From assembly GCA_022813865.1 (NCBI GenBank), contig JALDZX010000018.1:124001-188000 (forward strand): 64,000 bases of DNA, read 5' to 3'. This DNA is from Xylographa opegraphella. Lineage: Eukaryota. Positions 1-31,540 of the stretch are shown piece after piece. Under the pieces are notes generated by a model, which was not told the DNA's origin, ran no database searches, and saw nothing but the letters and a program-made list of their open reading frames with translations. Every line of letters begins with the position of its first letter. Position 1 is the first letter of the stretch. A program made the translations under genes and the position numbers.

Positions 1-2240
1 AGGAGCTGGGAGAACGCGTATCCTCGTAACGCACCATATAGACTTGGTAATCGCCGAAGCGTCTTACATCGTTACAATCGACCGAAGTGGAAATGTCCGG
101 GGTACAAGCGCCGTAGCCTACTCAGATTCGAGCTCCGGTACACTAACTCCAGCGGACCATATCAAGGACGAAGCGAAAATCGAAAAATCAGATAGCGAAG
201 TAATAAAGCAAGAAGAACGAGTGGCAGCCAAATTTGTTGAGGACGAGCACCGGGAACAAGGTCGTGTGTCGTTGAAAGTATACGGCGTCTACATCTCAGC
301 CTCCGGTGGGTACATAGCCTGGATCTTCATCCTGTTGAGCTTCTTGCTTGTCAGTGCCACCATCCTTGGCCGTTCATACTGGGTCGAGTTATGGTCAAGA
401 GTGACGGATCAGACTGAGACCAGCTCTTCCCAGCAAGTGAAGTTCTATTCCAACTTGTCGGACAAACCATCCACACGCAATCTTCGGAAAGATGATACAG
501 TTTTCTATCTCCTTGTATATCTCGGTATATCGCTCCTTACGGTAATACTCACGGCTGTCAAGGTTGGTACGACAATGTTTGCTTCCTTGCGAGCGTCCAA
601 GGTTCTATTCCGCAATTTGACCAATTCTATTCTTCGAGCCAACGTTCGCTGGCTTGATACTACCCCGATGGGCCGTATCCTTAATCGCTTCGTAGGAGAT
701 TTTGAAAAGGTCGACGATGAAATATCTCGCTCAATTAGTGAGTTGTCGTTCTTCCGCTTCTGATCGAAGATATTCTGGACAACGTCATGCTAATCACACG
801 TTCGTGATAGGTTTTGGTTCTTCATATACGTTTCAGCTTATCGGAATTGTCGTTGCCAGTCTATTCGTCTCGGCATGGGCTTTAATTCCTGCCATCGTAC
901 TCCTTATTTTATGTCTTCTGATCGCGCGGACGTACATCAAGGGCGCACGCGACATAAAGCGACTGGAGTCGAATTCCAAATCGCCGGTTCTAGAGCATTA
1001 TACCTCCTCTCTTCTTGGATTGGCGACTATCCGCAGCTTTGGAAAGAAAGAGGATTATGTCCAGCAGATGTATACCATGCTTGACCAGGAAGCACGAACC
1101 TCATGGCATGAGTCCCTCGCAATTGGCTGGATGGAATTTCGTCAGGGCTTTCTTGGAATACTCTTTGCTGTGATTGTTGCGTGCAGTGTCATCGCACTGC
1201 CGGGAATCGGAGCGCCTCTTGCGGGATTTGCTCTCGGCTTTGCGCTTGAATATGCTATGGTCGTTGTAGAACTGATCATTAAATACGCTGAGCTGGAGCT
1301 CGAGATGAATGCAATCGAACGAATCACGGAGTACATCGAGATGCCAATCGAGGATCAAAATGGAGATGAGGTTTCAGCTGCCTGGCCCACACAGGGTTGC
1401 ATCGAGGTACAAGGCTTGGAAGTGGGATACGCCAGTGATTTACCGGCTGTCCTCAAGAATGTGACTTTCACCGTCGCGTCACGAGAACGCGTGGGTATCG
1501 TCGGGCGGACTGGAAGTGGCAAATCGTCACTCACTCTGGCCATTTTCCGCATGCTGGAAGCGCGACGGGGCAAAATCAAGATCGACGATGTTGACATCGC
1601 AACTATAACGCGTCACGCCTTACGCAGTCGTCTTGCCATTATTCCGCAAGATCCAGTCCTATTCTCCGGTACCCTCCGATCCAACATCGACCATTTCCAC
1701 GAATACAGCGACGAAGCCGTTTTCGATGCCCTGCGCAGAATGCAGCTTCTCGATGACGGCGACGTAGGGGCAATAACAACGGCAGCCGAGGAGGAGCCTG
1801 ACGCAACCGACGCAAACGACGCACACGACGCAAACGACGCATCGGCAACAACCATGAACGTCTTCCTCAACTTGGACTATGAAATATCCCGTGGCGGGCT
1901 CAATCTCTCTCAAGGGCAGAGACAGCTCATCTGTCTCGCTCGTGCGCTAATCTCCCGGCCAAAAATCCTCGTACTTGACGAAGCGACGAGCAGTGTCGAC
2001 ATGGCTACCGACAGCAAAATCCAACGAAGCATCCGCGAAGACTTTGCCGGGTGCACTCTGCTGGTCATTGCGCATCGGTTGAGCACCATCTCAGACTTTG
2101 ATAAGGTGCTGGTGCTGGGAGAGGGACGTGTCCTGGAGTTTGGACCCCCGAAGGAGCTGTGGGAAAGCGAAGGGCCGTTTTGCGAAATGATCCGCCATAG
2201 TGGGGAGAAAGATAGCATAGAAAGTTCGTTCCGGGGATAG
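1..2240 (+). CDS. ABCC/MRP-type ABC transporter, 3' part (5' end lies outside the window)
   Basis: Frame from base 2 reads RTRILVTH (end of NBD1), then TMD2 (DTTPMGRILNRF) and NBD2 with Walker A GRTGSGKS, signature LSQGQRQL, Walker B ILVLDEATS and IAHRL. Predicted intron 738-810 (GTGAGT..GCTAAT..TAG) joins ORFs 44-763 and 702-2240. Confidence 0.95.
1800..1841 (+). repeat. 9-bp in-frame tandem repeat (GACGCAnnC) encoding DATDANDAHDANDA in an NBD2 insertion
   Basis: gacgcaacc gacgcaaac gacgcacac gacgcaaac gacgca read directly. Confidence 0.85.
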
Positions 2241-2967
2241 ATCCGACGTCGCTTGATCATGTAACCATATAGAGAAAGATATATAGCGTTCAGGCACATA
2301 GAGTATATTACCTTACGGTTGATCTCGCCTTCAGGAGGACCGCGCTGAGTTTGGAATGGAGGAGACTGTCGTCGACGATGTGATTGGCTCTCATTTCCGC
2401 CACGTGGCTGAGGCTCAAATCTCGTGCTGAACGTTATTGAGGTCATCTGTCAGACTCGCCAAAAACGGAACTTGCACACAGGCATCCAGGTGGCTGAACT
2501 ACAAATACCTCACTGTGGTAATAACGCAGTTTCGATCCGATGGTTAAGAGCTACGGAATAAGTTAGTCTGATCGCAGAATACGGCTAGGTCCCGGACTAA
2601 CTTAGGACCTACCCAGAAACGCGGGTTCCTCCCGTTATCCTACCGAGAAAACCCGGCCGAGGGCCACAACGTGTGCCTCCGTGCCTCGGCAGCGATTTGT
2701 GCATAGTGACAGCCGGACTGAAGTTCAGGTGTGGGCACACCGAAACCAATAGTAGTAAGCCATGACCGGTCATGCATACTATTCTTGACACATCCGACAC
2801 ATCCTCACCATGCGAATTGTCCCCAGGGGACTCTCAGTGGGCTTGCAAGCCGATTCCGAGTGACCCCAAAGTGTCTGCCTAACTATCAGCCTCTACTATA
2901 GTTCTTTCTTTTCCAAATCTGGGGTTTGCGACTCACATAATTTCTCTACCTGCTGTAGCTTAGAACG

Positions 2968-3636
2968 ATGAGTTGGCAAGATAGTATTGTGAGCGCGTTT
3001 GCGCCCTTGGCGAATATCGCCTCCTACCATTTGCTTCTCTACAGCATGCTGCTTGGGACGGAGGTGTATCAGGTGAGTCCTCCAGGTCAGCGACGCTGAA
3101 TCTGATACTTACTGCTTTGGCGACATGCACAGAGCTTTGTCATGACCAAAGTCTGCTATAATGCTTTACCCATGTCTGCTTTCACCACGCTGCAGAAACG
3201 CGTTTTCCCAGTTTATTTCAGAATCCAGTCCGCCCTCGTCCTTCTGACGGCTGTCACGTTCCCGCCATATGGTCCATTGTCGCTGGTCTTCTCCACGGGT
3301 GACGCGCTCACCATCGGATTCACGGGTGCTATGGCGTTACTGAATCTGACGATATATGGGCCCAGGACCCAACGGGCAATGATCGAGAGGACCCATCAAC
3401 GTAAGGAATACACATCCCCCGAGTCTTGAAACCGGTTGTTAACGACCCTCACCACAGAAACCCGCGAGGGAAGAAGTCATGATGATCCAGGAGAGCCCAG
3501 TGGGGAGATGGTCAAGAAGAGGAAGAATTTCTCGCACAACCATGCCATGAGCATTCACTTGAATCTCTTGGCCATGGGGACTACCGTATGGTACGGCCTC
3601 CGGTTAGCTTCGAGGCTTCAGCCTGCATTGTCCTGA
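2968..3636 (+). CDS. DUF4149/TMEM205-like small membrane protein (XanD-like)
   Basis: Spliced product MSWQDSIV..YHLLLYSMLLGTEVYQ|SFVMTKVCYNALP..FTTLQKRVFPVYF..NLTIYGPRT..FSHNHAMSIHLNL carries the typical DUF4149 motifs. Predicted introns 3073-3132 and 3401-3457. Confidence 0.85.
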
Positions 3637-4608
3637 GATAGCCACTGTGCGCAGCATGTTTTTAAGCAAAGAAGCGGCCTCTGTCGTGAAGAACGCCGTG
3701 CAATTTATGTGAAGATTCGTATCGACAGTCCACGTCAGGTCTACCGCTCTGCAGCAACAAGATCACTGTTGGTATATGTGAATACAGTGTTGGCATTTTC
3801 CGATATCAATGCTGTGATCACGAGGCACATTGATGGTGCCAGTCATGCACCGCTCGACGGCTACTACATTGATCTCGAGAGACTATCACAGCATGGATAA
3901 CGGAAGTCAAGGTGAGCTCTGTATTGGAAGCAGGTGGGAAGGCCACGAGCATAAGTCTGAACTGTCCTCTTGACCGCAAAGCCTGTTCCGAAGACAGCGT
4001 TTGTCGTATGTATCATTCATAGCATATATATAGCCACTAGTCAGCTGTGCCAGAGTGGAAATTTGGCTTAAATATACATATTTTATCCCAATACCGTTCA
4101 CTCTACGCGGTGTCCTCTTCTGATATTGGTTAGATGCAGCTACAGTATGAATCTAGAGATTCTCTCGTCCGGAGTACGATGGGTGACAAGGACGAGTACT
4201 GTCATCAACCCTTGAAACGCAAACAACGTCTATGGCGCTTTCGCTTGTAATGAGGGCTTAAATACCCAGACTTGGTTAGACTACATTAGCCAAGCTTACT
4301 CCGTTATCGAGAAATTCATCAGCTTAGCTTACTATCCACCTTGACAATCATCGTCACGTACTGCCAGCCTCTCGCAATGAGCCCAGGTAAGGGCTGCGAA
4401 ATTACGCAATCGAGTCCTGTAATGACTAATCTATGCAAATGCCGTTGTTCGATGTCCATCTCACATGCCCTTGCTGATTGTACAGATAAGGTTTATTCTG
4501 TAGCTTTCTTCCTTCGTCTCGTTTCTTTGATTTCGCTATCGACACTTGCTTGTCCACCGCGCTCTTTTCTCTGTGTACTCTGAAGTGTTGCTACTCTCAT
4601 CAGTCATT

Positions 4609-6297
4609 ATGTCGGTTCTCCTTTACCTTGTAGGGGTGTTCGTCGTGATTGCGGTGCTTCTATGGAGCCACATTCGTATGCCAGGAAATATGCCCAAGAA
4701 TATACCCACAGTTCCGATTTACATCAGTTTGATGGGTCTCTGGTCGGATATGGGTCAGGTGGACATCTACAACAAGTGGCTCCGCGAACCGCTCGAGAAG
4801 TACGGCGCTGTTCGAATTTGGTTCGCGGGCCGTTGGAACGTGCTAGTCACTCGGCCAGAATACATTACAGATATGTTCCGAAATGAAGATTTGTACGCGA
4901 AGGCGGGTAGTCAAAAGAAGATTCCATGGAGCGTAATAGCATCGCTGGTTGGAGACAATATCATCAATTCGCATGGCGAGACGTGGAAGAACTACACGGC
5001 CATAATGAAGCCGGGGCTTCAGAAGACGCAATTCGATTCGAAACCCATACTTGCCCAATCTCGAAAGTTTGTTAATGTTCTATTGAAAGCGCAAGAAGAC
5101 GTCGGGCATAATAGCGGGGTTTTGGTGAATCCTATAATCCAGCGGTTTGCTATATCTGCGATGGGTCAGAGCTTCCTCGATATCGATTTCAAGGTACATC
5201 AATCCCACAAAATGCGACTGCAGAATACTAAATTCAGTATAGTGCTTGGAAGATCCCAATACACGTATCAACGAGTTGCAGAACATCATTAAACGCACGA
5301 TATTCAAGCCCCTCTATTTCAATTTCCCAATCTTGGACAAATACCCATATATCTTTACATCTCGTCGACGCGCGTTCGCGATCATGCATGAGTTCGAAAA
5401 CCTCCTTGACGAACTCGTTCGAACTCGACCGAACAAGCTGAATCGGAAGGAGCCTCTTGCCCCCCAGGACGAACTCGTCGTTCACATGTTAGAGCGAGCG
5501 CTGGAGGAGGGCAAGATCACCAAGGAAGCATACCTTGCGAACCTTAAGATTACTTTCTTGACTGCACACGAAAATACCCAACAGCTGATGAACTCGATGT
5601 TTTGGCAATTTGGGCATGATCTGGTACGTTTAAGGAGAAGCTTGGGAGTCTCCTCAAGATATACTGACGTAAAGTCTATTAGACATTTCAAGAAAAGCTC
5701 CGCGCCGAAGTACTCGCTACAGGTGTTACTGAACCTACTCCCGAAGTTCTAAACAAGCTTCCATATTTGACAGCCGTTATCTGCGAGCTACTCCGAGTAT
5801 ACCCCCCGGTATCCCAGCTTATTAACAGGGTTACTCTGGAGCCAGCCAATCTCGGTGGCAATATCAGTATTCCCAAAGGGACCTGGGTAGGCTGGAATGC
5901 ACCCGGTGTTCACTCCGATCCAGCTGCGTGGGGACCAACAGCACGGGAGTTCATTCCGGAGAGATGGGGCGACAAGCCAGAAGATATCATGGCCAAGTAC
6001 CGCAAAGAGACTGTTAGGGGTAGATTCATCGCATTCAACAGTCATTCGAGGAAGTGCCTGGGACAAGGATATGCGCTTCTGGAACTCAAGATGTGCCTCT
6101 TTGAGCTCGTCAGGCGTGTGAAGTGGACGATTGACCCAGGATACAAGATGAAGCTGACCTCGGTAAGTGAAAATAGAACGACCGTCTTGTGCGACTGTTA
6201 CTAACAACTGATGTAGGGTGGTATCCTTGCGCCTCTGGGTGTGAAGGTCCGCTTCGAGGAGCTTGACACGGGTAGGATTTCGGAGAAGACGCTATGA
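4609..6297 (+). CDS. Cytochrome P450, CYP56/Dit2-like (XanG-like oxidative coupling P450)
   Basis: N-terminal TM anchor; YAKAGSQKKIPWSVIASLVGDNIINSHG resembles Dit2/CYP56; I-helix TAHENT, ELLR, PERW and heme motif FNSHSRKCLG. Predicted introns 5194-5242, 5624-5682, 6163-6216. Confidence 0.9.
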
Positions 6298-6963
6298 GTG
6301 GCCAGAGGGTCGATGTTGTATAGCAGCAGAGTAGTGATATAGATGGTCAAGGTATACATTGCATAATGTGGTATGAAGCGCGAGTGAGCCTAAGCATATT
6401 TCATACTGGAATCCTTGGATATACTTTGCGATCTGTTCGTCAGCCATAACAAAGAACAATACAAGTGAAAGCTACAGGTCGCTGCTGACTACTTTGCCCA
6501 CACAAATTTAAATTAATTCTAACACGGGTACTTGATATTCCCTTAAGACTCGAGAAGCAGTGCAAGATCGCAGAGCATTGCACTCATAGTTATGGAGGCC
6601 TCCATCCAGTACATCAACGAGGTACTCACAAATAGTGCGAATAGGGCAAAATTAACGCAAGATCAGGGGGCATACCCGCGTAACGTTTAGCGACAACTCA
6701 CCCAATCTTCCGCTTGATCCCCCCAGTGGCTTAGTAACCCCTAAGGCTGACCGCACTACGATAGTTAGTGTAACCTTGCGTCAGCTCAGCGGACTCAGCG
6801 CTCCCTGGATTGCTTCCGGTGCCGAGACAAAGACACCTCCGTGTGAATCACCGTGGTTGTTTCGATGCGCTAGCGTTGTCCGTTCCTTAATTATGCGCTT
6901 CGTACTTCTCTTGGGCTACTCTAGGATCTGAGATTCCAGCAAGAGTCCCTCGTTGAAGCTAAC

Positions 6964-9006
6964 ATGGCACCGAACTACTCCTACCAGAAGGTCGACGACG
7001 CCGAAAGCGATGGGGACTTCCAGAATCCCGCAGCGAGGCCCAAGTCTCGAGGAAAGAGCGGAGAGTTCTCACTTGGGCAATCTGTTCAGGTCGGGTGGCT
7101 GAAGCGACCATCGGTCAGTCTCGCTCGAGCGGTGGATTTCGTTCAGCTGGATAGTTATGCTGATTTCGACTAGGTATTCTGGCTCTTGCCCGCGTTCTTA
7201 CTCTTCAACCTGGCCATGGGCATGACGGCAATGCCCCGGATGAATGTCTTGATATCGTTGATATGCCGTAACGTGCTTTCGAATGGGATGCCTGCAGGCC
7301 ACGAGGCTGCGGCGGGAGGGCCGATGGGGAACTCTATGGGTCAAAACTCCCGCCGTCATATGGGAATGGGTGGAGGAGGTGGGCACGCAGGCAATTCTAC
7401 CGGACCGCTCAACTACTCGCCGGAAGCTGTGGTCATTGGGGATTACAACCCACAGTGCTCGTTCAAAGAGGTCGAATCGGCCACTGCGATGCTTACCTTG
7501 TACGGGAATCTCATTGCTGGAATCCTAGGGGCAATATTCACTCCGGTCTGGGGAATGTTGAGCGACAGATACGGCCGTGTGAGACCACTCGCTGCCGCAT
7601 CTTCGATATTCCTTGGCGGAGAGATCATCAGTGTTCTTATTGCTGCTCTTCCTGACGCTTTCCCTCTCAATTGGATCTACTTTGCGTTCATATTGGAAGG
7701 ATTTAGGTATAGCGCCTGAGATACGAAGCAAGCATAGGACTGACATGAATGCCAGCGGATCGTTCCTTGTTATTATGGCTTTGGCTTCGTCGTATGCTGT
7801 GGACTGCACACAAGATAATGAGCGGAATGTCGCTATTGGTTAGTTTTGAGTGAAGTCCAGTGAAAGCCGTTCTAACTTTCCACAGGCTATTTCCATGGAA
7901 GCATGTTCCTCGGTATGGCTGCGGGACCAATATTTGGTGGCTATCTTGGCATGAGTGGTGGTGAGAGTAGACCCATGCTTATCTTCTATACGGCTCTGGT
8001 ATGTTTCTGGTTCTCTAGTGCTTTCATAAACTATATAGCTAAACTCCTGAAGGTCATAAGGGGCTTTGGAATCGCCTTTCTACTTTTCTTTGTACCTGAA
8101 AGCCTATCTCGTTCCGAAGCCCGTCCAGAATCGGCGATCTCAGAACTCAAACAACTCTTCGCGGCGGCCAAGAGTCAAAGCTGGGCAGAGAGAATCAGAA
8201 GTGCAAATCCGCTCCACCTACTCCGCATTCTTGCACCATCCAGAGCGACTGCTGGCAGCAGCGTCCAGAGAAATCTGATCACGCTGACTAGTATCAACAC
8301 GATTATATTTGGAAGCGTGATGGGTGCAATGAATGTTTTGATGCTGTACTCGGAGGTTTGTGTGATACACTGTGATAATAGACTTCTGCTCACAGTATAA
8401 CAGTTCGAGTTCGGGTGGGGCAACAAAGAGAGCGGTATCTTTCTCTCGGCTGTCAATTTCTCCCGGACAATTGCCACTGTCGGCGTACTTCCTCTCGCCA
8501 TCTACCTTTACCGCCGATGGCTATCCCGTACCGACCAGGCATCCACAGAGCACGGTTTCGATCGCCTCGACCTCTTCCTCATCCGTACCTCTGTCTTGTC
8601 GGACGTCATCGGCTTTGTCGGATATGCCATGGCGCCTAGCGGCACGCTTTTCATTCTTTCTGGCATTATCGCCTCACTTGGCGCAATCGGTCTTGCGACT
8701 TCAGAAGCTAGCATGACGAAGCTGGTAGACAGCTCACAGATCGGCGAACTTCTCGGCGCTCTAGGGTTCCTACAAGCGGTAGCAAGAATTATCGCACCTA
8801 CCATTGCGTCTCTGACCTACTCGTGGACCGTGGCTTCGATACCACAGCTTGTTTTTATGGGCATTGCGGTTTGCTTCGTTGTTGCGTTCGTGGTGTCATT
8901 CTTTGCACGCCCGGATACCTCGAATGGTATATTTGCGAAGGAAGAGACCGAGGATGGCGAACCGATGATTCCGCTACCAGCACGAAAGGCATGCGCCCGT
9001 TGCTGA
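6964..9006 (+). CDS. MFS transporter (SLC46/tetracycline-efflux-like), multi-exon
   Basis: MFS motif A WGMLSDRYGR, many hydrophobic segments, C-terminal GELLGALGFLQAVARIIAP. First predicted intron 7114-7173, with several more short introns. Confidence 0.85.
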
Positions 9007-10746
9007 AGTTGAACTGTTACGAATAAGTTGTGAAGTGTGGCAATGTGGATATCACGCGTGCTAGATGGGAGCTCGTTGTACTGAGTCTTGGTGGCGTTAA
9101 GATGCATTACCTAGGCGTTGTCCTGCTGGCTGGAGCTTCAAAGCTTAAACAGGCTAAGCTGTTAGAAACGAAGAATGAATATGTCTCTTGGCCATAGAGG
9201 TCCTCGACATTGTAGTTAAGGCTGGTTTCCATTTCGCTCCTACCTATAGAAGTCTCTGTATGATCATAGCGCAGTTCCTCAAGACGTGATTATCGAATAT
9301 TTAGACGGCAATTCAGAGGCTGCCTGCTGTGCCTGTAATACAATCGACTCACGGATCAAGCTCTGTCAGAAGGTGCAGGGTTCGCGCTCACCATATATAC
9401 TACATGGGCAAGTTCCACTCGGAGCTGTCATCTGAGGATCACCAGTTTCCTTCTTCCACTCCCAGCTACTATCTTGGAAGTATTGCTACATGGATCAGAT
9501 TCATCACTTTGTATCGTCCGCTTCGCTCCGGATCTTGCACTTTTCTCGGAGCTTGCACACATTATAGCAGCCTGTCTAGACTATTTATACTACCAACATT
9601 AATGAGCGAACCTCGGCGGTTGAGCTGGGCGGCAACATCAACGAGAATGAGATTGTCGATGTTCAACTCCTCTTTTCCGCTCACTGGTTTACTATAGAAC
9701 ACTGTAGGCAACATTGATTCTGTTCAGCAAATTTTTTTTGGCGGCCGGGACAGTAAATCTGCACCCAGTAAGGTAAACATTGGTCATGTTAAGGTCCGCA
9801 GATGTGCTGTGAAGCTTTGCGTATGCATAGGCTCCAACGCTTTGAGAGCCTATGTTTAGTACACTACTCCGTAGGTATGCATCGGCAATCTCAACGCGGA
9901 ATGTTATTTTCCGTACCTTCAACCTTGTTGATTCACGATCAGAGTATGGTACATGCATGTAGCATGCGTCGGATGCGCGATGGGCGCAGGACTCTGCTGA
10001 CTCTGTACAGAGAGAGTACTACAGAGATCTCTCTGGCAGCTGCACACCGTACGATCTCTGTATTGCTACATTGTTGCGTACCAAGTTATACCACATTGGG
10101 GCTAGAACTTCCCCCCTCCGTAACGCGGAACTTCGTAATTTACCTTAGATCGTGACGTATTCAAGTTCGTGGGGGCGGACACCAGACTTGCTGTTAATCA
10201 TACTGGAAACATCCCGATGTGCTGCTAGATACGGAGCACCATTGCGGTGTAGGTAACCTGTCGTCCAGGTATTCTGTCTTATCACAAGTTTACACATTGA
10301 GACTGTCTATTGGATCGACTTCTGCCCGAGACACACTAATATGGCACGAACTTCAGCTCGGCATCTGGCTCAAGCATGACTGTGCTGATGGCTTGGATTT
10401 TGAAGGAGCTGCGCTGACATACCTTACATTAGTATGACTTCCAAGGGGAAGGCCCGCGTTCCGGGATTAGTCTGCCAGAGTGTCCAATCATGCCGAGCCG
10501 GGTACGGGTACCAACGTGAGCAAGCCGGTACCGTGTCAAAGCATTCCTGCCATTAGTCTACGTGAAGAGCTTTAAGCCGGGATGTGGATACCTTGTACTT
10601 GTAATAGATTCTGTAGAAGGATCAACGAAGGAAGGTAAGAAAACCGAGGTCTCATTCCCAGGTGTTCTTCTTTGTTGCCGTGATATACTACTCGTCCCCT
10701 GGCATTCCAGTATCTTGAGGACTTCGTCTCACATTCCGCCATCACC

Positions 10747-15302: not shown

Positions 15303-15329
15303 ATGCACTGGGGTCACTTTGATGGCTTG

Positions 15330-15405
15330 GATGTACTGGAGGGTCGAGGATGAACTGGTGGGTCTTAGATGGACCGGTGGGTCTTAGATGAATTGGTGGG
15401 TCATA
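15330..15405. repeat. 19-bp imperfect tandem repeat x4 (GATGnACTGGTGGGTCTTA-like) just downstream of the monooxygenase stop
   Basis: gatgtactggagggtcgag / gatgaactggtgggtctta / gatggaccggtgggtctta / gatgaattggtgggtcata; a degenerate copy at 15302-15320. Confidence 0.85.
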
Positions 15406-19123: not shown

Positions 19124-21115
19124 GGCAAGATAGGCAGCAAATATGACGAATGGTGGTACAGGGAAGTCTTCTGAGACAGAAATAGGGTCATAGAAGGTGT
19201 TACACAGAAGGATAAGGAACGTCCGGGCTTCACGGCGTTCTTTACTACTTTAGCCTCCATGAATATTCCACTGCCACGAGCTCGCACAGCTGCGCCGTGA
19301 TCCTACAGCATGGATGGAGATGGAGCACGGTAAGCCTTGGCCAGATGTGCACCGACAAGGCAGCCGTCATATGGCGTTGATCTTAGTAAGACCAAGTCCG
19401 GGACGTTGCACGAGAGCTGCATCAGACAACCCAAAACGACCCTCGAACGGAAGTTCCCCACAGCCGCAGTCTAGACAAGTGTCATCCACCACTGTTTCCT
19501 GCGCGCTACACGCCTAGGTAAGATCCTCGGCCGCCGCCACATTATGGCCTCTTTTTAGACTCCATCATTCATTGGGTCTCGACAAAGGCCGCGGCCCTCT
19601 GATGCCCAGCGTCCGATCGATGGCTGAAGGGAGGGTAACGGGATCACGGTTGAACGGAGGTCGGAGTCTCCGTTCGTCCAAGCTCGCTCTATAGGACAGT
19701 CTACCGGACCCAGCTAGCTTTTTCGTAGCCGTGGGAACTTGTCGCAGCGGAGGAAGTTGCACGATGCTGTAGGGAGTGATCTACGCAGAGGGTGAAACGC
19801 CACGGACGCTTTGCGCGGAGCGCCACGCTAGCAGAGTAATACTCGTCACCGCCCTTCGCTGTGATGCAGGCGCTCCGTAACCAATGAAGCTGTCTCAGCT
19901 TTCGTTCGGACGAAAGAGGTTCCAAGGAGCACTATGCAACCACACCTCCCACGCCCGCTTGGTCCAGCGGTGAACGCGAGCCAGCGCGTGTGGAGCGTCA
20001 CACCAGCCTGCATGATACGGATGACGGACTGCATGACAAGCTCCGAGAGCCTACCTTACGGAGTACCATGTTCTGCATCCCACGTTACACCACAACCCAA
20101 CGTCGCTGCCACCGCGTGCGTATCTGCAGGTCCTGGTTCGATTGGAAATTTCCCGGATGAGGGACGGCGATGTGAGACCCAGCGAGCTGCAACATGCGAG
20201 GGGCGACCTGCAGCCTGGATGCCCGGGCGGAAGGATTGGATGGCGAGCTCCGGTATTCTAGAAGACTTTGGTATCTGTCCTTCACGGTCTAGCGCGACGG
20301 TCTCGGGACGTTCACCTTTGCTTCCGTGAGCCAGTGGCAGCATAGAGGGCGAGTATCGTGGACACGGTACTGGCGTGCCGAATGAAAGAATATTGTCTTC
20401 CCAATTATCGAGGTTCCACCACTGAGCGTTGCTGTTGAATGTTCTGTTCAGAAGGGTCAAGGATACTACGGAGTGGCGAGTTACCTTTGTACTTATATTT
20501 TGCGTTCACGATACTTCCTTCAGTGTAACAGTCGTGGTACCGCATTTCGATCACCGAGATCCACGACGGTATGTCCTGACATCTTAGGATAAGCGTCTGC
20601 AGATGTCCTCAAACTACAGCGGGTGGTTCCATGCCTTGTTCGACTACTGCAAGGGCCTATTCAGCTTACAAGAGGCTCGATAACTACGTTGAATGAGGGC
20701 AATGCCGATTCGCTGACTAAAATGGCTTCTCCTGTCAGCTCCAGGAAAGGCTGAGGAAACCATCATACACATCTCATGTCACATAAGCTAATCGCTTGGG
20801 GACCGATCGCATGCAAGTTAGGATTCTTTCAGCGGAAGATGTACAGTAAGGGCGGAAAACATGGCTGCCCGTTGCCCATACTGAAGACGTTATTGGTCTA
20901 TTCTTAGACCTTTTTCAGCTGATTATCAGCGTCTGGTTTTAGACTAATAGCATGATATATCACGAGCTCAGAAAGGCTCTTTTTCTAGTCTCAGTCTATT
21001 GCATTCATTGACTCAGGGTCTCTCTATATAACTGCTTTGGCACCGTTTCATCGTACTTTTGTACGTTCCCTTCATACCCCAGTCCTAAGACATTTACATT
21101 TCTATTATCTTCATC

Positions 21116-23486
21116 ATGCTGGCAGCAACTTTAACTCAGTTCCAACAGCCGGCGGTATCGTCCCCATCTGTTGTACCGCAAGAGGATTTCCACTACCCGA
21201 GTACCAACGGTGATGGGACTATCACCACAGCCGTTGATCAGGAGCGCTTCTTGGCCCTGGAAAAGCGTGTGGAGACATTATTTCTTCAGATTCAACAATC
21301 AAGCATCACTTCGACTCTTACACCAACCGGAAAAGCAATGAAAAGCCGCAAATCGAAATCAAATTTTTTGGGCACAGGTCCTTTAAATCTGCCAATTACG
21401 CCTGAGATCAGTTTACCAACGACGCCAGCAATTCAACCGGATGATCAGCAGGAGATCTTCCCTGATATTCCAGACACACCATCCGCCAAACTATCGCTAC
21501 AAATTCTAGCTATTATCCAGCGATATGGGCAAAACACCGATGATGGTTGGGTTGGGAAGCAAAAATTCCTCCCTTTTGTTGAGGAGTACGTGAAGGACCG
21601 AAAGCCGGTTGAAATGGTCTTGCCGGCCTTCCCGTTCAAATCACCCAACCGGAAAGACAAGGTACTCGGCAACATGCCTGATCTGGGTGAAGAGCTAGCT
21701 TTGATGCACTTGAATGGTCTGTGTGAAAGCATCACAAAGATCTATGCCCCTGGAGCACATGTGACCATCACGTCTGATGGACTCGTATATAATGGTAAGT
21801 TCGAATCAAGGAGGCAAGGTTGGAGTCACATAATATTGACGTTCGATAATAGATCTAATGATGATCCCCGACTCGGAAGTCTGGGACTACTCCACTGCCG
21901 TCCGAGAGATCATCATGGCCAAAGAACTGAAGCACATCAAGACATTCCGCATCGTCGACCTGCTCGACTTTCACGATACTCAGAACCTCACCAGGGAGGA
22001 ATATCTTGTCCACGCCGGCTGTTATCGGCGGGAACTTATTGCCAAGTTCAGCCCAAAGAACTTTGATAGTCGGCAATCGGTCCGTGAAGACAAGGACACA
22101 TGCCTGACATATCGTGGCTACATCAAGTTCCTTACCAAGGATCTAAAATATAGTCGTCTAGGGGACGAGTTCGGTAACGAGAAAAAGAAATATAAGGATG
22201 CAATCGAGAAGCTGGCATACGACATGATATTTCGTGGCAAGGTGAGAATACTATTTCGGAGACTATTCTCCACCTAAAGTGCTAATCATCGGTCCTACAG
22301 ATCTTTGCCGCTGCCGTCAACGCCAAATGTGGAAAGTTCGTACGCTTGTCGATCCATCCGTCCGTTGGGCAGACGAAACTATCTGTTCCGTTGATTCCTC
22401 CGCCAAAGGGAACCCCTCTCATGACACCATGGCATTCATCGGTTCTTGTTGGTCTCGACGGCTCTTTCCGGACTATTCATGCTGATGAAGGACGGGAGCT
22501 ATATGATGTTGTCATGCGTGATGGAAAGCCATATCATTTCAGAGAGAAGTCAGACCTATGGAATTTTGGCAACACAAAGGTCACTTTCGAGCACTTGTAT
22601 CCATGCGGACTGATCATCCGTCCCGCCGACCCAACTACCAAGCCTTCGCTCAGTGAGGTCAACATGAAAAAAGTGCGAGGACTGGCAGAGCATCAATCTC
22701 CCGTTGTTCTCCGTGGTTTCGCTGATACCACTGACCGAGAGCTCTTCATCAGCAAGGCCTATGAGCTAGGTACGGTCCTGCCATGGACGTTCGGTATCTT
22801 GCAGGAGGTCAAGGATCATGGGAAGACCCATAAGCTACACAACAATGTTGTTAGCAATGAAGCGATGCCTATGCACTACGACGGCATGTTCAAATTCGTT
22901 CCCGAGCTAGACGCGGACGGCAATCCCAAGGTTGATGCCGACGGAAAGGAGATCAAGGTTCAAAAGCCACCCAGGTAAGCACCAATAATGTTTCTACTAC
23001 AAAGAATCACTTCTAACGAACTTCAGGTTCCAATATTTCACTTCCATCGCCACAGCCCCCAAAGGCACGGGATACACTCTCTTCGCTGCCTCGCGTCTCT
23101 TCTTCCAATACCTTCCTCACCCATACACCGTGGAACGCCTCGAGAAGATCACCTGGGCCATGGACAACAATGGCTTCTGGGACGCCAAACTCAAGAATCT
23201 TCCCCTCGTCGTCCGTCATCCAATCCGCAACACCCCTTGCATCCGCTGGCACGAACCGTGGGATGCGACCAAGACTAAGTTCTCTACTTGTGATATCACG
23301 ATCGAAAACGATGACCAGGAAATTACGCAGGTCGTCGACTCGTTGTTATACGACCCTCGTATCTGCCTACGATTCACCTGGGACCAGGGCGACATCCTCG
23401 TCTCGGACAATGTGTTGATGGAGCACACCAGAACGGAGTTTACCGGCGAGTGTGATCGGGAACTGTGGCGCATCCATTTTGACTAG
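21116..23486 (+). CDS. Isocyanide synthase (Dit1/PvcA domain) fused to a TauD-like Fe(II)/2OG dioxygenase (XanB-like)
   Basis: ICS motifs LPAFPFKSPN, KVLGNMPDLGEELAL, SDGLVYND, YRGYIKFL, RLSIH, TPWH. Dioxygenase part has PVVLRGF, HYDG (HxD), a distal H in DNVLMEHTR, and RELWRIH. Predicted introns 21795-21852, 22242-22300, 22975-23026. Confidence 0.95.
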
Positions 23487-24796: not shown

Positions 24797-27508
24797 ATGG
24801 AAATGAACCAGCAGGCTCAGCCAGAGACGACAAAGCGGTTACGGATCGCGCAAGCCTGCCAGTACTGCCGGAGCCTGAAAACGCGATGTCTTCCGAGCGA
24901 TCAAGAGGGGAAATGCCAGAGGTAGGGTTGCGATTTCATAATTGCCGCCCAGCGAGACGTCTGTAACATCGCGTACTTGGGGTTCCATATTATATTGACT
25001 TTCCTGCATGGTTATTGTGGGAAGTGTGCCGTTTCGTGTATAGCTGGACATTCTGTATCTCTTGCCTGAGGATCGCATGTTGCCGTTAATATTGTTGCCA
25101 CCTGGCTATTTCATTTCTTTCTGACGACGTGACTAACATCAAGCAAGGTGTTTATCATCGAAAAGAGAATGTATCAGGACGGAGAGCCAGCCGAGGCCGA
25201 AGAAGGCGCGTACCTCCAACTCGTGAGCTACCTCCCACTCAACCGCCCTCGGCGTACTGAACGCTACTCATTCTACCGGTACGCAGACGGGTTGCCCAAA
25301 TGGAGAAGAAGCTCGATGGTCTAGTTGCTCTTTTTTCTCATCCAGAAGCGCCCAAAACACCATCTGTGACCAGAGATGCAGTGCCGAGTGGAATGTCACC
25401 CGCCTACTCCCTTGCAACCCCGGACCAGCGTAGCTTACCTGTACAAGCTAAGGATGATTGGCCCCGTGTTAGTCATCATGGCCATGAGGACGTGGACATG
25501 ACAGTACACGATATGCATGATGGCCATGAGATTCCACACCGCTCTGAGGCCCTGCACAGAAATTTCTCAACTCCGGCACGATCTAATTCACTCATGAAAT
25601 CCGACTTCCAGCGGGAGCCAAGCATATATGAAGAGCGCTCAAGCCATCACTCGCACTTGGATCCTGTACACTCAAAGTATGGCCACCCGAGCCACGGGCA
25701 TTCAGATGCCAACACGAGTCCCGTACAGGATGATTCAACACCTCAAGCTTCTGTTGAGATTGAGGGAACCGCGTTTGCGGCCTTTCCGAACGAACTTATG
25801 GACTGTGATAGAGCTGAGCTTCTATTAAACGAATTCAGAGAGATGACACCCTTCTTCCCATTTGTACCTTTGTCTGCCACCATCACAGCTTTGAGCATGA
25901 GCTCGCGAAGGCCTCTTCTATTACTTGCAATTTTGATGACAACGTCTTTTGGTGACCGACAGCTGCAAGTCATTTTGGAAGAACAATACCGGCAGGAACT
26001 TTCTAAGAAGGTATTCATGAAGGGCCAGAAGAGTTTGGATCATCTGCAAAGTATTCTGGTTTATCTTGCTTGGTAAATTGGTTTTGACATTCTTCCATTC
26101 GACCGTGGATAATCTTACATCCGACAGGTATCATTTCCACTTCAAGCCTCAAGTTCAGCAGATATATCCATTGCTACACTTGGCGATCGGTATAGCAGTC
26201 GATCTTGGATATCACCAGCAGCCGAAGAAGCCGGTGGTCGACTACCCAGTCCAGACGGAGGGTATCCCAATAGTGCCTAGCCAGTCGCGAGAAGCCCAAA
26301 GAGCATTTCTCGGATGCTACTACTTGTCAACAGCGTAATACAATTCTTTCAGGATTAGATATCCTTCGGGCCACGGTATATCTGCTGACGCTCCTCCCTA
26401 GATTCGCTGTTGCACTCAGTCGACCAAACTTTGTAAAATACACCGTCTACATGACCGAATGCTGCACCCGACTGAGAGATGACCCAGAGTTCCCTTCCGA
26501 TAAGATGATTCCGCACATGATCAGTCTACATCATATTGGCGATCAGATCAATGATGCATTCCGTTCTGAAGACGGCGATATATCCCCAGCGATCCAGCCC
26601 TTGGTGCAGATACATCTCAGTCTGCTGCAGTCGCAGCTCAATGACTGGAAAAGCCAAGCGCAGTTAGAACCAAACCAACATGGTACGTTGTCCCTAATCA
26701 TGAGTATCGCCATCAACTAATTTCATCCACAGAGAATACCGCCTTCCACTTCATTAATATGGAGCTCAACAGCGTCGCGCTCCGTATGCCCGTCCCACAC
26801 CCGCCTCCCAACTCCTCCCTCCCTCCGTCCTCCACCAACCACTCTATCCTCCTCGCTTGCCTTGAATCCGGCAAAAGCTACCTGGACGCCCTTCTCGCGC
26901 CACCCGCCTCCTCGTACCGACATTTCGCCTTCACTGAATGGACACGTCTACCCTACGTCCTCGTCATCGTCTCCAAGCTCTCCTTCCCGCACCCCACGCA
27001 CTCTGCCTCGCACTGGGACCCCCGCCTTGCGCACGACCGGCTACGGCTCGACCTGTACCTCGAATCGCTCTGCTACCGTATGCAAGCCATCACCACGTAC
27101 GCCGGTCCCGCCCAGCCAATCGCCGACTTCTTTGCCAGCATGAAGTTGATCCTCGAGCGCACGCGCCGCTGGTACGAGCGTAAGGCGAAGGCGAAGCCTG
27201 GCGCACGCGATCCGATTGCTGAATACTCGCCCCTCGAAGTCATCCGCGATCCGCACGAAGTACCCGAGGGCAGTACGCTGTGTTCGAGAGGCCATGTCAT
27301 CAGACAACCACAGGATGGCGATCCGTCGTGTCCGTGCGCAGCGGCAACGGAGGACAAGACGCCTGCATCTGTGATTCCGGCCGTGTATTCTACCGACCAG
27401 ATTGGGTTTGAGGACGATGGCTGGTTGGAGAACCTCGATGATGCGTTTTGGAATATTGACCCGACGCTGTTTCCCGAGATGGGAGATATAGGTGGTTTGT
27501 CTACATAG
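24797..27508 (+). CDS. Zn(II)2Cys6 transcription factor
   Basis: Spliced N-terminus ACQYCRSLKTRCLPSDQEGKCQR|CLSSKREC (intron 24922-25147; second intron 25223-25286), RVAQMEKKLDGL coiled coil, middle-homology-type region (FFPFV, KSLDHLQSILVYLAWYHF, AQRAFLGCYYL). Confidence 0.9.
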
Positions 27509-28414: not shown

Positions 28415-29533
28415 ATGGCTACACAGAAGGCCATCGTCCTCGGGCAGATCGGCGCGCCGCTCACCCTGACCGAGCGGCCGATCCCCACCCCCGGCGATGG
28501 CGAGGTCCTGATCAAAGTGACTGTCTGCGGGCGTGAGTCTCCCCCCTCGTACGTAGCCGAGTTGCAGCACCGCTGACCCCCGCCCCCGCCAGTGAACCCG
28601 TACGAGCACTACGCGCGCGACTGGGGCCTCTACGTGGACAAGAGCCGCATGCCGGTGGTGCTGGGCAACGACATCGCGGGCGTGGTCGAGCAGCTGGGCC
28701 CGAACATCGAGCACGGGCTGCAGGTGGGCGACCACGTGTTCGGGCAGTCGAACTACCTCAAGAACACAAACGAGCAGGCCGGCCTGCAGCAGTACTGCGT
28801 GCTGGACGCGTACACGACCAACAAGGTCCCCGCCGGCTTCAGCGACGACGACGGCGCCTCGCTGTGCTGCAACATCATCGCGCCCTTCTGGTCCATCTTC
28901 GGCGCCCACGGCCTCGACCTGCCCTTCCCCTTCCCGCCCGGCCCCCACGACGCCCGCCAGCCGCGCGACTACAGCGCCGACACCATCCTCATCATCGGCG
29001 CCGGCGGCAACTGCGGCCGCAACGCGGTGCAGCTCTGCAAGCTGGCCGGCTTCGGCACCATCGTCGCCACGGCCGCGGCTGCCAAGGCGGACGAGATCAA
29101 GAGCTACGGCGCCACGCACGTCGTGGACCGGCACGCGCCGGACGCGGAGCAGCAGATCCGCGCCCTCGTCGGCGACGACCTGCTGTACGCCTTCGACGCC
29201 GTCAACCTCGACCACTCGCTCGGCGTGCGCTGCCTGTCCGACTCGAAGCGCGGCACCCTCGCCTGCATCCTGCCGGGCCAGGTCGACGCCGAGCTGTTCG
29301 CTCACAAGACGGCCGGCTACGACGAGAAGTTCACCCAGGGCCAGATCCACAACCAGCCCGCGCTCGCGGCCGTCTTCGCCACCTGCCTGCCCATGTGGCT
29401 CGAGCAGCGCAAGATCCGCGCCGTGCCGTGGGGGGTGTTGGACGGCTTGGATCCGGCCAAGGTGAATGCCGTGCTGGATGGGTACCGGGATGGGAAGCCG
29501 CCGCCGAAGCAGGTGCATGTGCATGTTTCGTGA
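28415..29533 (+). CDS. Medium-chain dehydrogenase/reductase (GroES-like, enoyl-reductase/zeta-crystallin type)
   Basis: PIPTPGDGEVLIKVTVCG|LNP, PVVLGNDIAGVVEQLG, Rossmann ILIIGAGGNCG, YGATHVVDR; predicted intron 28533-28592. Confidence 0.9.
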
Positions 29534-29767
29534 GCGGGAGGAAGGGCAAAGCGGTCGGGGCTGTTGGAGGTTCGATAGATGAGATTTGCGTAGCAATAGA
29601 AAAGTTTCTGTGCCGGTATGAATGTTTGTTCTATGGCATCGTCTTGTTTGGATAATTGGCCCGGGTGTACGCCCAGTGATGCTTATATTCATCTATAATG
29701 CTAGTCGGATGTAATTCGTCTACCATCCAAATCCGCCATGCACCTGCCAACTCTCACAATGACCCGT

Positions 29768-31540
29768 CTAAACACTCATCCCCGGTCCCTTCACCTCATC
29801 CGAGCCGAGGGGTGGCTTTCCTCCAGCAGGTGGACCTCCCGCTCCCGGTGGACCTCTCATGCCCGGCCCCCTCGGTGGCCCAGGCTTCCCCTCCTTCTCC
29901 TCATACTTCCTTCGCATCTCCTTCCCCCTGATCATCAAGAACCCGATACTGGCCACGCAGCACAGCTCCACTAGCGCCAAGCCCGTAAAGCACCAGCCGA
30001 TGCCCATCTTCGCGATCAGCGGCTCCACCACCACGGCCGCGACGGCGGCTGCCGGGTTCCGGAAGAGGGACGCCAGCGCGACGAGGGTGGCGGGGGTCTT
30101 GTGGAAGGATTCGGTGAGGTAGGAGGTTGTGGTGATGAAGACCCAGGTCATGCCGAAGGCAGCTAGGGAAATTGTTAGTGGGCACGGGCAAGACAGCGGG
30201 ACGGGGGAAGCTGACCGATAGTGGCGGCGATGATGACGCCCGCGGCGGAGACGTGGAAGTTGTTAAACCAGCCGTACATGAGGATACCACTGAGGGAGAC
30301 AAGAATCCCTGGGATCTGGAGGTGCAGTCGTCGCTCGGGGTGGACGGGTGTGTCTGGGTTGCGCTTTGTGAAGAGCCCTCGATGCCAGTCTGATACACGG
30401 CCGCTGATGAGCGACCCTGCCACGAGGCCAAGACCAGGAGCCATGTAAGAGACACCGACCTCGGTGCTGGTGAAGCCGTAGATGTCCTCCAGGAAGCGGG
30501 GAAATGTCACTGCCATGGCGTAGTAGGCCGAGAAGAGGATGGCGCTGTTCATGGAGACTATGACGATGGGTGGATAGTATAGGAGTTTAAAGAGAGAAAT
30601 GAGTGTTGGTGGAGGCGGTTTGGGGAATTTCTTGGGGTCGACAACTGGCTTTTGCCGCCAAACGGGGCGGGTGACCCAGTTCTTGGTTGCATAGATCTCG
30701 CCGGTACCGACTATAGAGCGGAGGGTCTCCGGTAGACAGAAGGTAAGGACGACGTAGGCTGCTGCACAAGCAATGGCTGAAGAAATTCAACTTTGGAAGT
30801 CACTAAAGCAGTGATCCGGACATACCTAGGAACCCAAATGTCCATCGCCAGCTCGTTGAGCCAGTGATGGCACCTCCAATCAGGGGTCCCAGCACAGGTC
30901 CCAGCTGGGGACCAAGGAGAACAATAGACATCTGGGATGCTCTGCGCTTGGGTTCTGTTATATCGGCTACTGTCCCAGCTCCCAAGGACAATACGCTGGC
31001 TGCTCCAAAGCCTTGAACTATCCTTAATATGAACAAAGCAGCAAGATTTGCTGGCAGTGCTGCTAACAAGATATTCGCCGCGATGAATATCAGAAGCGAG
31101 ATCATGTACAGAGGTTTTCGGCCGCCATAATCAGCAAGAGAAGCCCAGAACAACGGCTAGGTCAAATGTCAGTGCTCGATCGATATTTGCTCTTTCTTTA
31201 CTCGGATACGTACTGCTACAGCCAAGACGCCCATAAACACAGAGACAGTCGCATTTATAGCAGTTGCCGATGTATTGAATTGATCCTGTAGGACTGGCAG
31301 AGCTGGCAGGTAGATATTTCCTGCCAATGGTCCAAAAAAGCCTGCTGCTGTCACAATCAGGATAATGAACCGTTGTCGTCCGGGGGTGAATGCGGTATAT
31401 TGCGGCTTCACCACTGGTTTGGCTAACTCAGGCAGTGCTGTGGTCGAGTCGTTCTTCGACGTCGAAGCGCTCTTCTCAGGATCCGCATCGGCGAGTGTTT
31501 TCGGCGTCGGCAGAGGCGCCGAACCCTGAGTTGCAGACAT
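29768..31540 (-). CDS. MFS DHA1 transporter resembling yeast dityrosine transporter Dtr1
   Basis: GFFGPLAGNIYLPALP..INATVSVFM..PLFWASLADYGGRKPLYMISL..NILLAALPANLAALFILRI..SVLSLGAGTVAD closely matches my recollection of Dtr1; LPETLRS and PERRL DHA1 motifs; multi-exon. Confidence 0.85.

Follow-up and report, generated by a model that had tools for sequence, protein, structure and literature searches.

A probable xan-family isocyanide synthase gene cluster with a distinct accessory gene set in the lichen-forming fungus Xylographa opegraphella

Results

A xan-type cluster in the first half of the window

We analysed a 64,000-nucleotide stretch of the Xylographa opegraphella assembly GCA_022813865.1 (contig JALDZX010000018.1, positions 124,001 to 188,000 of the forward strand; hereafter the window, whose own numbering is used throughout), in which an earlier reading of the bare sequence had placed an expanded xanthocillin-type isocyanide synthase (ICS) gene cluster. 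The first 31.6 kb probably represent an intact xan-family biosynthetic cluster of a lichen-forming fungus, either X. opegraphella itself or one with a near-identical genome. Pfam matching and direct reading identified in this region an ICS fused to a TauD dioxygenase, a XanG-type cytochrome P450, a DUF4149 gene and a XanC-type basic leucine zipper (bZIP) factor, homologous to XanB, XanG, XanD and XanC of the xan cluster, respectively. Four transporters (three MFS and one ABC) are encoded in the same region, as are a Zn2Cys6 factor, an FAD monooxygenase resembling PnpA and an MDR reductase resembling LovC. The original prediction of a xan-type ICS cluster, with a P450 of the CYP56/Dit2 type, DUF4149 and bZIP genes and, interleaved with them, a monooxygenase, a reductase, a Zn2Cys6 factor and four transporters, is borne out in its composition. 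Because the four xan-type genes each match at the level of orthologues and not of families only, chance co-occurrence is, judged on sequence, not a serious option. The tested gene models are all open and full length (ICS 733 amino acids (aa), P450 508 aa, monooxygenase 447 aa and bZIP 284 aa); those for the MFS, Zn2Cys6, MDR and ABC genes are approximate.

The Pfam scans covered stop-to-stop open reading frames (ORFs) of at least 90 aa, 106 of them in 1–33.8 kb and 93 in 34.2–64 kb, together with 140 and 115 more ORFs, mostly short and taken from the gaps, down to at least 35 aa in 15.3–18.2 kb. All four domains that the original prediction had proposed for checking (DIT1_PvcA, TauD, DUF4149 and p450) were matched. 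As it had also stated, the scans of 1–31.6 kb revealed no domain of a polyketide synthase, of a non-ribosomal peptide synthetase (NRPS) or of a ribosomal or other housekeeping protein, and AMP-binding, PP-binding and condensation domains were absent from the window in all scans. The left border of the cluster is cut off by the window start; beyond 31.6 kb the gene content changes to members of the 2EXR family and a cation ATPase of the P2 type, from which we infer the right border.

Core genes of the cluster (coordinates, strand, product):
2986–3621, plus strand: DUF4149 membrane protein (XanD-like); exons about 2986–3084, 3106–3426 and about 3493–3621
4609–6297, plus strand: cytochrome P450 of the XanG/Dit2 orthogroup; 508 aa, Pfam p450
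18209–19123, minus strand: XanC-type bZIP factor; 284 aa, basic region read directly
21116–23486, plus strand: ICS fused to an Fe(II)/2-oxoglutarate (2OG) dioxygenase (XanB-like); 733 aa, DIT1_PvcA and TauD

The ICS and P450 group with XanB and XanG

The ICS gene consists of four exons (21116–21794, 21853–22241, 22301–22974 and 23027–23486) separated by three GT-AG introns, with its ATG at 21116 and its stop codon at 23484–23486, and the spliced open frame has exactly the coordinates first given for the fusion. Pfam matches to DIT1_PvcA, spread across three ORFs, and to TauD span 21089–23483 on the plus strand. The ICS domain matches the structures of PvcA (3e59) and of an L-Tyr/L-Trp isonitrile synthase (9dhm), while the dioxygenase domain matches PIsnB (7tcl) and PvcB (3eat). 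The iron triad HxD...H is present in the TauD domain of the window and is invariant across all 25 aligned homologues. In phmmer alignments of the dioxygenase, a Lys (HYDGMFK) occupies the position of PIsnB K107 and a His (IRWHEP) that of N188. Enzymes reported to make vinyl isonitriles have Lys/Arg and Asn/His at these respective positions, whereas isocyanoacrylate enzymes (PvcB) have Leu and Cys (PMC9467999). Both PIsnB-type residues predict that the product is a vinyl isocyanide, and this is a forecast only, because single mutations at the marker residues are reported in the same paper to have left the product type unswitched.

A protein search with the ICS gave 267 matches at E ≤1e-10 among 2693 candidates, the best 120 of the 267 being listed. 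Exon 3 is 95% identical to its counterpart in X. vitiligo and 89% to that in X. bjoerkii, against 52–54% for named xanB genes of Penicillium and Aspergillus; overall identity to the X. vitiligo protein is 90% over 710 aligned columns. A 49-row tree puts the window sequence inside a 17-row clade (SH-aLRT 100) of Xylographa, Pseudocyphellaria, Teloschistales, Geoglossum and Dothideomycetes. The neighbouring 27-row clade (SH-aLRT 97) holds all named XanB proteins together with Fusarium and Leotiomycete sequences. Caeruleum heppii sits unresolved at the fork of the two, and a strict sister relation is not supported by this tree, which was built by a quick method with a midpoint root and in which four long branches were flagged. 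The cluster backbone is, on these comparisons, a two-domain orthologue of XanB.

The P450 gene is likewise assembled from four exons (4609–5193, 5243–5623, 5683–6162 and 6217–6294, followed by the stop codon), and Pfam p450 is matched in three ORFs at 4531–6201 on the plus strand. Its protein search returned 86 matches. The C-terminal exon shares 95% identity with Xylographa trunciseda and 58–64% with named xanG genes, the overall figure for X. trunciseda being 94% over 485 columns; a second group, of Dit2-like P450s, is 48–51% identical to the window protein. A 32-row tree places it in a 23-row clade (SH-aLRT 99) with all named XanG proteins and apart from eight other Dit2-like P450s. The taxa in its nearest subclade (8 rows, support 100) are almost those of the ICS clade, and both genes therefore seem to have moved as a pair. 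The heme-binding loop, FNSHSRKCLG, has a His in place of the Gly usual in P450s. The commonest loop, found in 33 of the 86 matches with named XanG included, is FNAHSRKCLG, and the form FN[AS]H.RKCLG is common to the window P450 and named XanG; the second group has FNAWTRSCIG. These features mark the P450 as XanG-type.

The DUF4149 and bZIP genes resemble those beside ICS genes in related loci

One scan of metagenomes with a 25-sequence ICS alignment yielded 73 loci. Twenty-nine of them are at least 8 kb long, and in 11 of these the ICS is at least 53% identical to the query; the 11 correspond to 8 distinct loci, with flanks of at most 10 kb each. In the 11 loci, tblastn at E 1e-5 detected DUF4149 in six, the P450 in four (plus two weak matches) and the bZIP, the Zn2Cys6 factor and an MFS2-like gene in four each; with tblastx, the bZIP and the Zn2Cys6 factor each gained two further loci. 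One locus (L001) has an ICS 97% identical to that of Penicillium arizonense and the order ICS-bZIP-DUF4149-P450, as in the published xanB-C-D-G order of P. expansum.

The DUF4149 gene has its Pfam match at 3106–3426 on the plus strand (E 4e-20), and the flanking exons are conserved by tblastx. It is 46–65% identical to DUF4149 genes beside the ICS in seven of the 73 loci, including two Penicillium xan loci (46% in L001 and 52% in L002), and we class it as XanD-type. The cluster assignment was open to the objection that its P450 and DUF4149 genes might not be orthologous to XanG and XanD; the P450 in fact lies in the XanG clade and the DUF4149 protein matches Penicillium xan loci. The role that the original prediction gave to XanD stands only in part: xanD does belong to the A. 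fumigatus cluster, but published work reports that it is not regulated by XanC and makes no contribution to product formation.

The bZIP gene is transcribed divergently from the ICS gene. With its 60-nucleotide intron (18913–18972) spliced out, the ORF reads KRRLQNRISQRNYRNKIRDRLEKLEALV; the Pfam bZIP domain was not matched in this ORF, even at E 0.05. The protein is 58% identical to the bZIP adjoining the ICS in locus L006, in which the ICS falls into the window's own clade and the bZIP is again divergent from it. In the Penicillium xan locus L002 the bZIP reads RRRLQNRLSQRNHRK, then an intron, then KIRDRIAKLQERV, so that both the basic region and the intron position are as in the window. The assignment to the XanC type is made through these bZIPs of metagenome loci and not through the AfXanC sequence itself.

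Accessory genes

Accessory genes of the cluster (coordinates, strand, product):
1–2240, plus strand: ABC transporter; ABC_membrane and ABC_tran at 2–2237, 5' end cut by the window start
7174–9006, plus strand: MFS transporter 1; MFS_1 at E 1e-5 and 8e-7 (weak), exon structure uncertain with poorly supported junctions
10800–12728, plus strand: MFS transporter 2 (TRI12/MFS_1 type); MFS_1 at E 2e-27, 5' end approximate, intron 12233–12306
13757–15302, plus strand: class A FAD-dependent monooxygenase (PnpA/HspB-like); 447 aa, FAD_binding_3 at 13745–14755
24797–27508, plus strand: Zn2Cys6 transcription factor; several introns, model approximate
28415–29533, plus strand: MDR-family reductase (LovC/AzaJ-like); ADH_N and ADH_zinc_N at 28577–29530
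29768–31561, minus strand: MFS transporter 3; MFS_1 at E 2e-24 and 1e-10, about four exons, start approximate

The monooxygenase is spliced from exons 13757–13923, 13996–14746, 14809–15140 and 15209–15302 into a protein identical at 447 of 447 residues to X. opegraphella MMC26_003331. It carries the motifs GGGPVG, GCDGG and GDAAH, and its nearest structures are PnpA (1.5e-40) and HspB. Both PnpA and HspB exchange the para substituent of a phenol for a hydroxyl group. The nearest structure of the MDR reductase is LovC (5e-17), and its Atlas cluster is named 'Dehydrogenase azaJ' (score 0.98). Two genes of the window have an extreme GC content at third codon positions (GC3), namely this reductase (28415–29533, 0.97) and an ORF with a weak match to the DUF7730 family (45463–46845, 0.93), the other genes checked lying at about 0.42–0.65; both sit in local GC-rich patches of 0.60–0.62. 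The unusual GC3 of the reductase could point to a separate history, although its nearest Atlas clusters are from ascomycetes and there is therefore no sign of a non-fungal origin.

The cysteine motif of the Zn2Cys6 factor is split by an intron and, read across it, has the form CX2CX6CX8CX2CX6C; Pfam gave only half a match (E 0.04), and no Fungal_trans domain was matched in the body of the protein, even at E 0.05. Homologous segments adjoin the ICS in six of the 73 metagenome loci (tblastx). The Pfam MFS_1 matches span 7174–9003 (plus), 11107–12258 (plus) and 30178–31156 (minus), and MFS2-like genes lie beside the ICS in loci L002, L007, L008 and L014 and also in L024 and L025. The ABC gene has a likely intron at 738–810.

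Co-conservation in other fungi

Locus tags place the ICS and P450 close together in Usnochroma (4259/4258), Variospora (328/327), Pseudocyphellaria (6476/6483), Caeruleum (818/811), Cudoniella (2448/2450) and A. lentulus (1157/1161). In Pseudocyphellaria and Caeruleum the two are seven tags apart, which resembles their spacing in the window. A protein search with the monooxygenase gave 20 matches, several of them near the same genes: tag 7092 against 7090 for the ICS in Geoglossum simile, 07121 against 07115 for the P450 in Endocarpon pusillum, and 10048 against 10053 for the ICS in Fusarium musae. In Plenodomus tracheiphilus and Phaeosphaeriaceae PMI808, the monooxygenase and the ICS/P450 matches are on contigs of equal size. 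Judged by these tags and contigs, the monooxygenase is shown to travel with the ICS and P450 in several fungal classes. The original claim of a different accessory set thus holds in part, the monooxygenase being co-conserved by sequence and the Zn2Cys6 factor and one MFS gene recurring in metagenome loci, while the MDR reductase recurs at the family level only.

Nickles et al. (2023; supplement Table S4, PMC10153163) have published computer predictions that contain related gene sets. As tabulated there, 1507_Endocarpon comprises FAD_binding_3, MFS, p450 and ICS-TauD, and 218_Endocarpon comprises ICS-TauD, p450, MFS, ADH_zinc_N, SnoaL_2, Methyltransf_2 and MFS. The longest, 1164_Plenodomus, lists p450, MFS, ICS-TauD, DUF4149, MFS, ADH_N/ADH_zinc_N, SnoaL_2, Methyltransf_2, MFS, PhyH, FMO-like and Zn_clus, and 1183_Delitschia has p450, MFS and ICS-TauD. 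The genome table of that study names five different Lecanoromycete genomes and no Xylographa. Its tables also give a second Endocarpon ICS cluster, 219_Endocarpon_pusillum, with a single-domain ICS, p450, DJ-1_PfpI and a Ctr copper transporter; as listed, this cluster represents another ICS family, one that in a lichen-forming fungus is linked directly to copper.

Two further observations concern the material used for comparison. A Dothideomycete-like metagenome contig (L012), whose ICS is 83% identical to that of Plenodomus, encodes at 9479–12115 (plus strand) an NRPS-like reductase with AMP-binding, PP-binding and NAD_binding_4 domains, 5 kb downstream of the ICS and a Zn2Cys6 homologue. Some public protein models (P0081, P0082, P0084, P0176 and P0200) look like fusions in which neighbouring cluster genes have been joined: DJ-1 with ICS-TauD in A. 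fumigatus and Emarellia (936–1022 aa), P450 with DJ-1 in Penicillium hispanicum (731 aa) and ABC with P450 in A. hancockii (1855 aa). Such models are probably annotation run-ons and are useful as evidence of gene adjacency. The A. hancockii model was tried as a sign of co-conservation of the ABC transporter and rejected, its ABC part being only 25–31% identical.

Promoter sites

The regulatory site of A. fumigatus XanC, AGTCAGCA, has AGTCAGC as its first seven bases, and this core is present in six of nine cluster promoters (P450, MFS1, bZIP/ICS, Zn2Cys6, MDR and MFS3). One copy lies in the promoter common to the bZIP and ICS genes; others stand upstream of MFS1 (6484), of the Zn2Cys6 gene (24645, read as AGTCAGC(A), 152 bp upstream), of the MDR gene (213 bp upstream) and of MFS3 (31843). 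In a blind k-mer count over the nine promoters (9.7 kb), AGTCAGC was one of only three canonical 7-mers to reach six regions. The nine promoters account for 15% of the window and hold six of its 14 AGTCAGC sites (binomial p 0.012, the 7-base cut having been chosen after the k-mer table). The DUF4149 promoter has no AGTCAGC, and the xanD promoter of A. fumigatus is reported to have no XanC site. For k-mers found de novo in the nine promoters, the best coverage of six in nine was no higher than in shuffled promoters; only the previously known motif carries weight. The promoter pattern is suggestive. Copper-responsive motifs were not enriched (TTTGCKCR, 6 against 9.9 expected; TGTGCTCA, 0 against 2.5).

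Non-coding features of the cluster (coordinates, strand, description):
15303–18208, no strand: GC-rich stretch (0.54–0.61) with no recognisable gene, from ORF scan, codon signal and repeats
19124–21115, no strand: promoter common to the bZIP and ICS genes, with one AGTCAGC at 20712, 404 bp before the ICS ATG

Gene-free stretches and flanking genes

The stretch at 15.3–18.2 kb showed no Pfam match (ORFs of at least 35 aa), codon-position signal, repeat, signature of repeat-induced point mutation or match in related loci; it holds many ORFs of 100–200 aa in all frames (15303–18208) and might represent either the remains of a gene or a long spacer with a regulatory role. Pfam matches were also absent from 9.3–10.2, 19.3–21.1 and 23.5–24.7 kb, and the ORFs at 9.3–10.2 and 19.9–20.5 kb had no coding signal. 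No repeats were found in 15.2–18.2, 19.25–21.1 or 23.5–24.8 kb. Against related loci, the four gene-free stretches are unconserved save for one 21-aa tblastx match at 19943–20005.

Beyond the cluster, three ORFs (32823–33662, minus; 39932–40897, plus; 45463–46845, plus) have weak 2EXR/DUF7730 matches below the Pfam cut-offs and may form a small local fungal-specific gene family just outside it. A P2-type cation-transporting ATPase (35874–39387, plus; E1-E2_ATPase, Cation_ATPase_N and Cation_ATPase_C) begins 4 kb past the last cluster gene; it is not a copper pump, because it has no heavy-metal domain. An unbroken 1054-aa ORF at 55470–58631 (plus) matches no Pfam family at E 1e-3.

Discussion

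A predicted route to ring-oxidised diisocyanides

The gene set suggests a route in which the ICS domain would convert L-tyrosine to tyrosine isonitrile and the fused dioxygenase would remove CO2 to give 4-(2-isocyanovinyl)phenol. The XanG-type P450 would then couple two vinyl isocyanide units to a xanthocillin-type diisocyanide, XanG being the proposed dimerase of the A. fumigatus xan cluster. The monooxygenase would oxidise the phenol ring, either by ortho-hydroxylation or by para replacement, between which the sequence does not discriminate. Ring-hydroxylated xanthocillins (Y1 and Y2) exist. The target of the LovC/AzaJ-like reductase may be a C=C bond or a quinone, and this is the least certain step, a guess; the MFS and ABC pumps would export the product. 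A tyrosine-derived isocyanide dimer whose chemistry differs from that of xanthocillin X, as inferred in the original prediction, would be the putative outcome. The bZIP factor probably drives the cluster through AGTCAGC-type sites, jointly with the Zn2Cys6 factor.

No xanA (isocyanide hydratase, DJ-1/PfpI) was found: DJ-1_PfpI had no match in any Pfam scan of the cluster region, and tblastn with the DJ-1-bearing models P0081, P0084 and P0176 matched only their ICS and P450 parts. Nor was a methyltransferase domain, as for xanE and xanF methylation, detected by Pfam in 1–33.8 kb. With neither hydratase nor methyltransferase domain, free and unmethylated isocyanides would be expected, and no formamides or methyl ethers of the A. 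fumigatus type. A coumarin route like that to paerucumarin was set aside, as the dioxygenase carries decarboxylating-type residues.

Extended to other fungi, these data allow a broader proposal, which we put forward tentatively and regard as somewhat doubtful: that a widespread sister branch of the xan family (ICS-TauD, XanG, XanC and XanD with a PnpA/HspB-type monooxygenase and often a LovC-like reductase) in Lecanoromycetes, Verrucariales, Geoglossomycetes, Dothideomycetes and Fusarium makes a new class of ring-oxidised tyrosine diisocyanides of catechol or quinone type.

Alternative explanations

It is conceivable, though we judge it unlikely, that only the ICS, P450, bZIP and DUF4149 genes work together, making plain xanthocillin X or a monomer, and that the other genes are unrelated neighbours. 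Eurotiales xan clusters indeed do without these accessory genes, neither the monooxygenase nor the MDR gene was found in any of the 11 metagenome loci of at least 8 kb with a close ICS (8 distinct loci, flanks of at most 10 kb), and 3 kb of empty sequence lie between the monooxygenase and the bZIP. The codon make-up of the MDR gene is very different (GC3 0.97 against about 0.55 in its neighbours), and its co-conservation was read from Pfam family names in published tables and not from a comparison of sequences. The following also weigh against an extended cluster: in Usnochroma and Variospora, the monooxygenase homologue and the ICS are on separate contigs (of fragmented assemblies); locus-tag adjacency presumes that tags run along the contig; the SnoaL_2 and Methyltransf_2 domains of the published predictions were not found in the window locus by Pfam; the ABC, MFS1 and MFS3 genes have no support from other genomes; and neither the full 8-base AfXanC site (four in the window against 2.6 expected) nor AGTCAGC (14 against 10.2) is enriched window-wide, the cut to seven bases having been made post hoc. 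Against a four-gene unit stand the monooxygenase orthologues two to six tags from the ICS or P450 in Geoglossum, Endocarpon and Fusarium musae; the FAD_binding_3, ADH_zinc_N, Zn_clus and MFS domains tabulated inside published ICS-TauD predictions; the AGTCAGC core in the MDR, Zn2Cys6, MFS1 and MFS3 promoters; and the location of accessory genes between the P450 and the ICS rather than outside them.

An extended cluster could also be intact and silent, or its regulator repurposed as in Penicillium expansum, in which case no isocyanide would be made in the lichen; this seems to us quite improbable. The xan bZIP of P. expansum (PeXanC) is reported not to activate the xan genes of that fungus, so that a shared bZIP does not prove regulation, and no report of a lichen-fungus isocyanide or a xan-like lichen cluster was found in the literature searched, which lay outside subscription journals. 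The tested models, on the other hand, are open and full length with their catalytic residues kept, and the 90% identity of the ICS to X. vitiligo and 94% of the P450 to X. trunciseda fit purifying selection (judged on identities). Least probable of all, to the point of being very remote, is a pathway that makes no xanthocillin-type dimer, with the P450 and monooxygenase acting on a monomer (to give, for instance, a vinyl isocyanide bearing a hydroxyl group or, by ipso-hydroxylation, a hydroquinone) or the P450 making a Dit2-like dityrosine biaryl. The nearest solved relatives of the monooxygenase, PnpA and HspB with their para replacement, would suit such chemistry, and the P450 does lie within the wider Dit2 family. 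Within that family, however, it belongs to the 23-row clade of all named XanG proteins and shares their heme loop, and the dioxygenase residues predict a loss of the carboxylate that misfits a dityrosine-type product. An extended xan-family cluster is thus the reading we prefer.

Novelty and significance

The branch to which the locus belongs has already been published in the form of computer predictions (Nickles et al. 2023) and is chemically uncharacterised; the window adds a new member and is in that respect an incremental result. The expectation in the original prediction that backbone-based cluster finders may overlook such a locus is outdated: an ICS-specific mining pipeline, with no lichens in its main text, has been in print since 2023 (PMC10153163) and lists such clusters in Endocarpon and Plenodomus. 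Surveys of lichen biosynthetic gene clusters do count isocyanide clusters, and only count them. Only three fungal ICS clusters (xan, crm and dit) have known chemistry, and fungal isocyanides are copper-binding and antimicrobial. The gene set of the locus is complete and, with the ICS, P450, monooxygenase and bZIP genes modelled exactly, can be used for heterologous expression; the locus also flags a PnpA-like monooxygenase as a conserved extra step that would separate the non-Eurotiales branch from classical xanthocillin biosynthesis. If the proposal is true, the product would be the first isocyanide from a lichen fungus, perhaps a copper-binding agent within the symbiosis.

Comparison with known systems

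Bacterial isnAB (rhabduscin-type vinyl isonitrile) and pvcABCD (paerucumarin) resemble the window in combining an ICS and an Fe/2OG enzyme that act on tyrosine, and the window dioxygenase has the PIsnB-type Lys and His markers. The pvc system also adds a flavin-dependent ring hydroxylase, PvcC/D. In contrast to the window, the bacterial enzymes are encoded by separate genes and there is no P450; PvcB, which has Leu and Cys at the markers, retains the carboxylate, and the pvc hydroxylase belongs to another, two-component flavin family. DIT1/DIT2 of S. cerevisiae (spore-wall bisformyl dityrosine) are like the window in that a tyrosine-using enzyme of the ICS family is paired with a P450 of the CYP56/Dit2 family, which joins two tyrosine-derived units, whereas Dit1 is a single domain without TauD in a two-gene unit whose product is a formamide dityrosine and no vinyl isocyanide. 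The dit arrangement of a single-domain ICS next to Dit2 is not seen here, the ICS having a TauD domain and the P450 lying 15 kb away. Nor is that of crm, in which the ICS is fused to NRPS-like A-T-TE/R domains, none of which occurs in the window.

The Endocarpon and Plenodomus predictions are closer. Endocarpon proteins are 81% (P450) and 78% (monooxygenase) identical to the window exons, and those of Plenodomus 68% (ICS) and 69% (monooxygenase). The published tables share with the window FAD_binding_3 (1507), ADH_zinc_N (218 and 1164) and DUF4149 with Zn_clus (1164); they differ in SnoaL_2 and an O-methyltransferase, and for Plenodomus also PhyH and an FMO-like domain, none found in the window. 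They list no bZIP, yet Pfam misses the window bZIP too, and they are computer predictions without chemistry.

Most instructive is the comparison with xan itself, in A. fumigatus (xanA-G; Lim et al. 2018, PMC5974471) and in its Penicillium versions (Wang et al. 2021, PMC8406171). These share with the window the ICS-TauD, XanG-type P450, bZIP and DUF4149 genes, and the core of the AfXanC site is present in most window promoters and missing at DUF4149, as reported for xanD. The window differs from A. fumigatus in having neither xanA nor a methyltransferase domain (xanE), although xanA is also missing from some accepted xan-like clusters, such as that of A. nidulans, and xanE and xanF from that of P. 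expansum. Its bZIP is divergent from the ICS where theirs is convergent; its P450 and ICS are 15 kb apart, with the PnpA-like monooxygenase and two MFS genes between them; and it adds a Zn2Cys6 factor, a LovC-like MDR reductase, one more MFS and an ABC transporter. Its ICS and P450 fall in a clade of lichen fungi, Geoglossum and Dothideomycetes separate from that of Eurotiales, and its host is a lichen-forming Lecanoromycete. By its gene content, the locus is a member of the xan family that has the four core features without the variable ones, and represents a non-Eurotiales branch with a different tailoring set.

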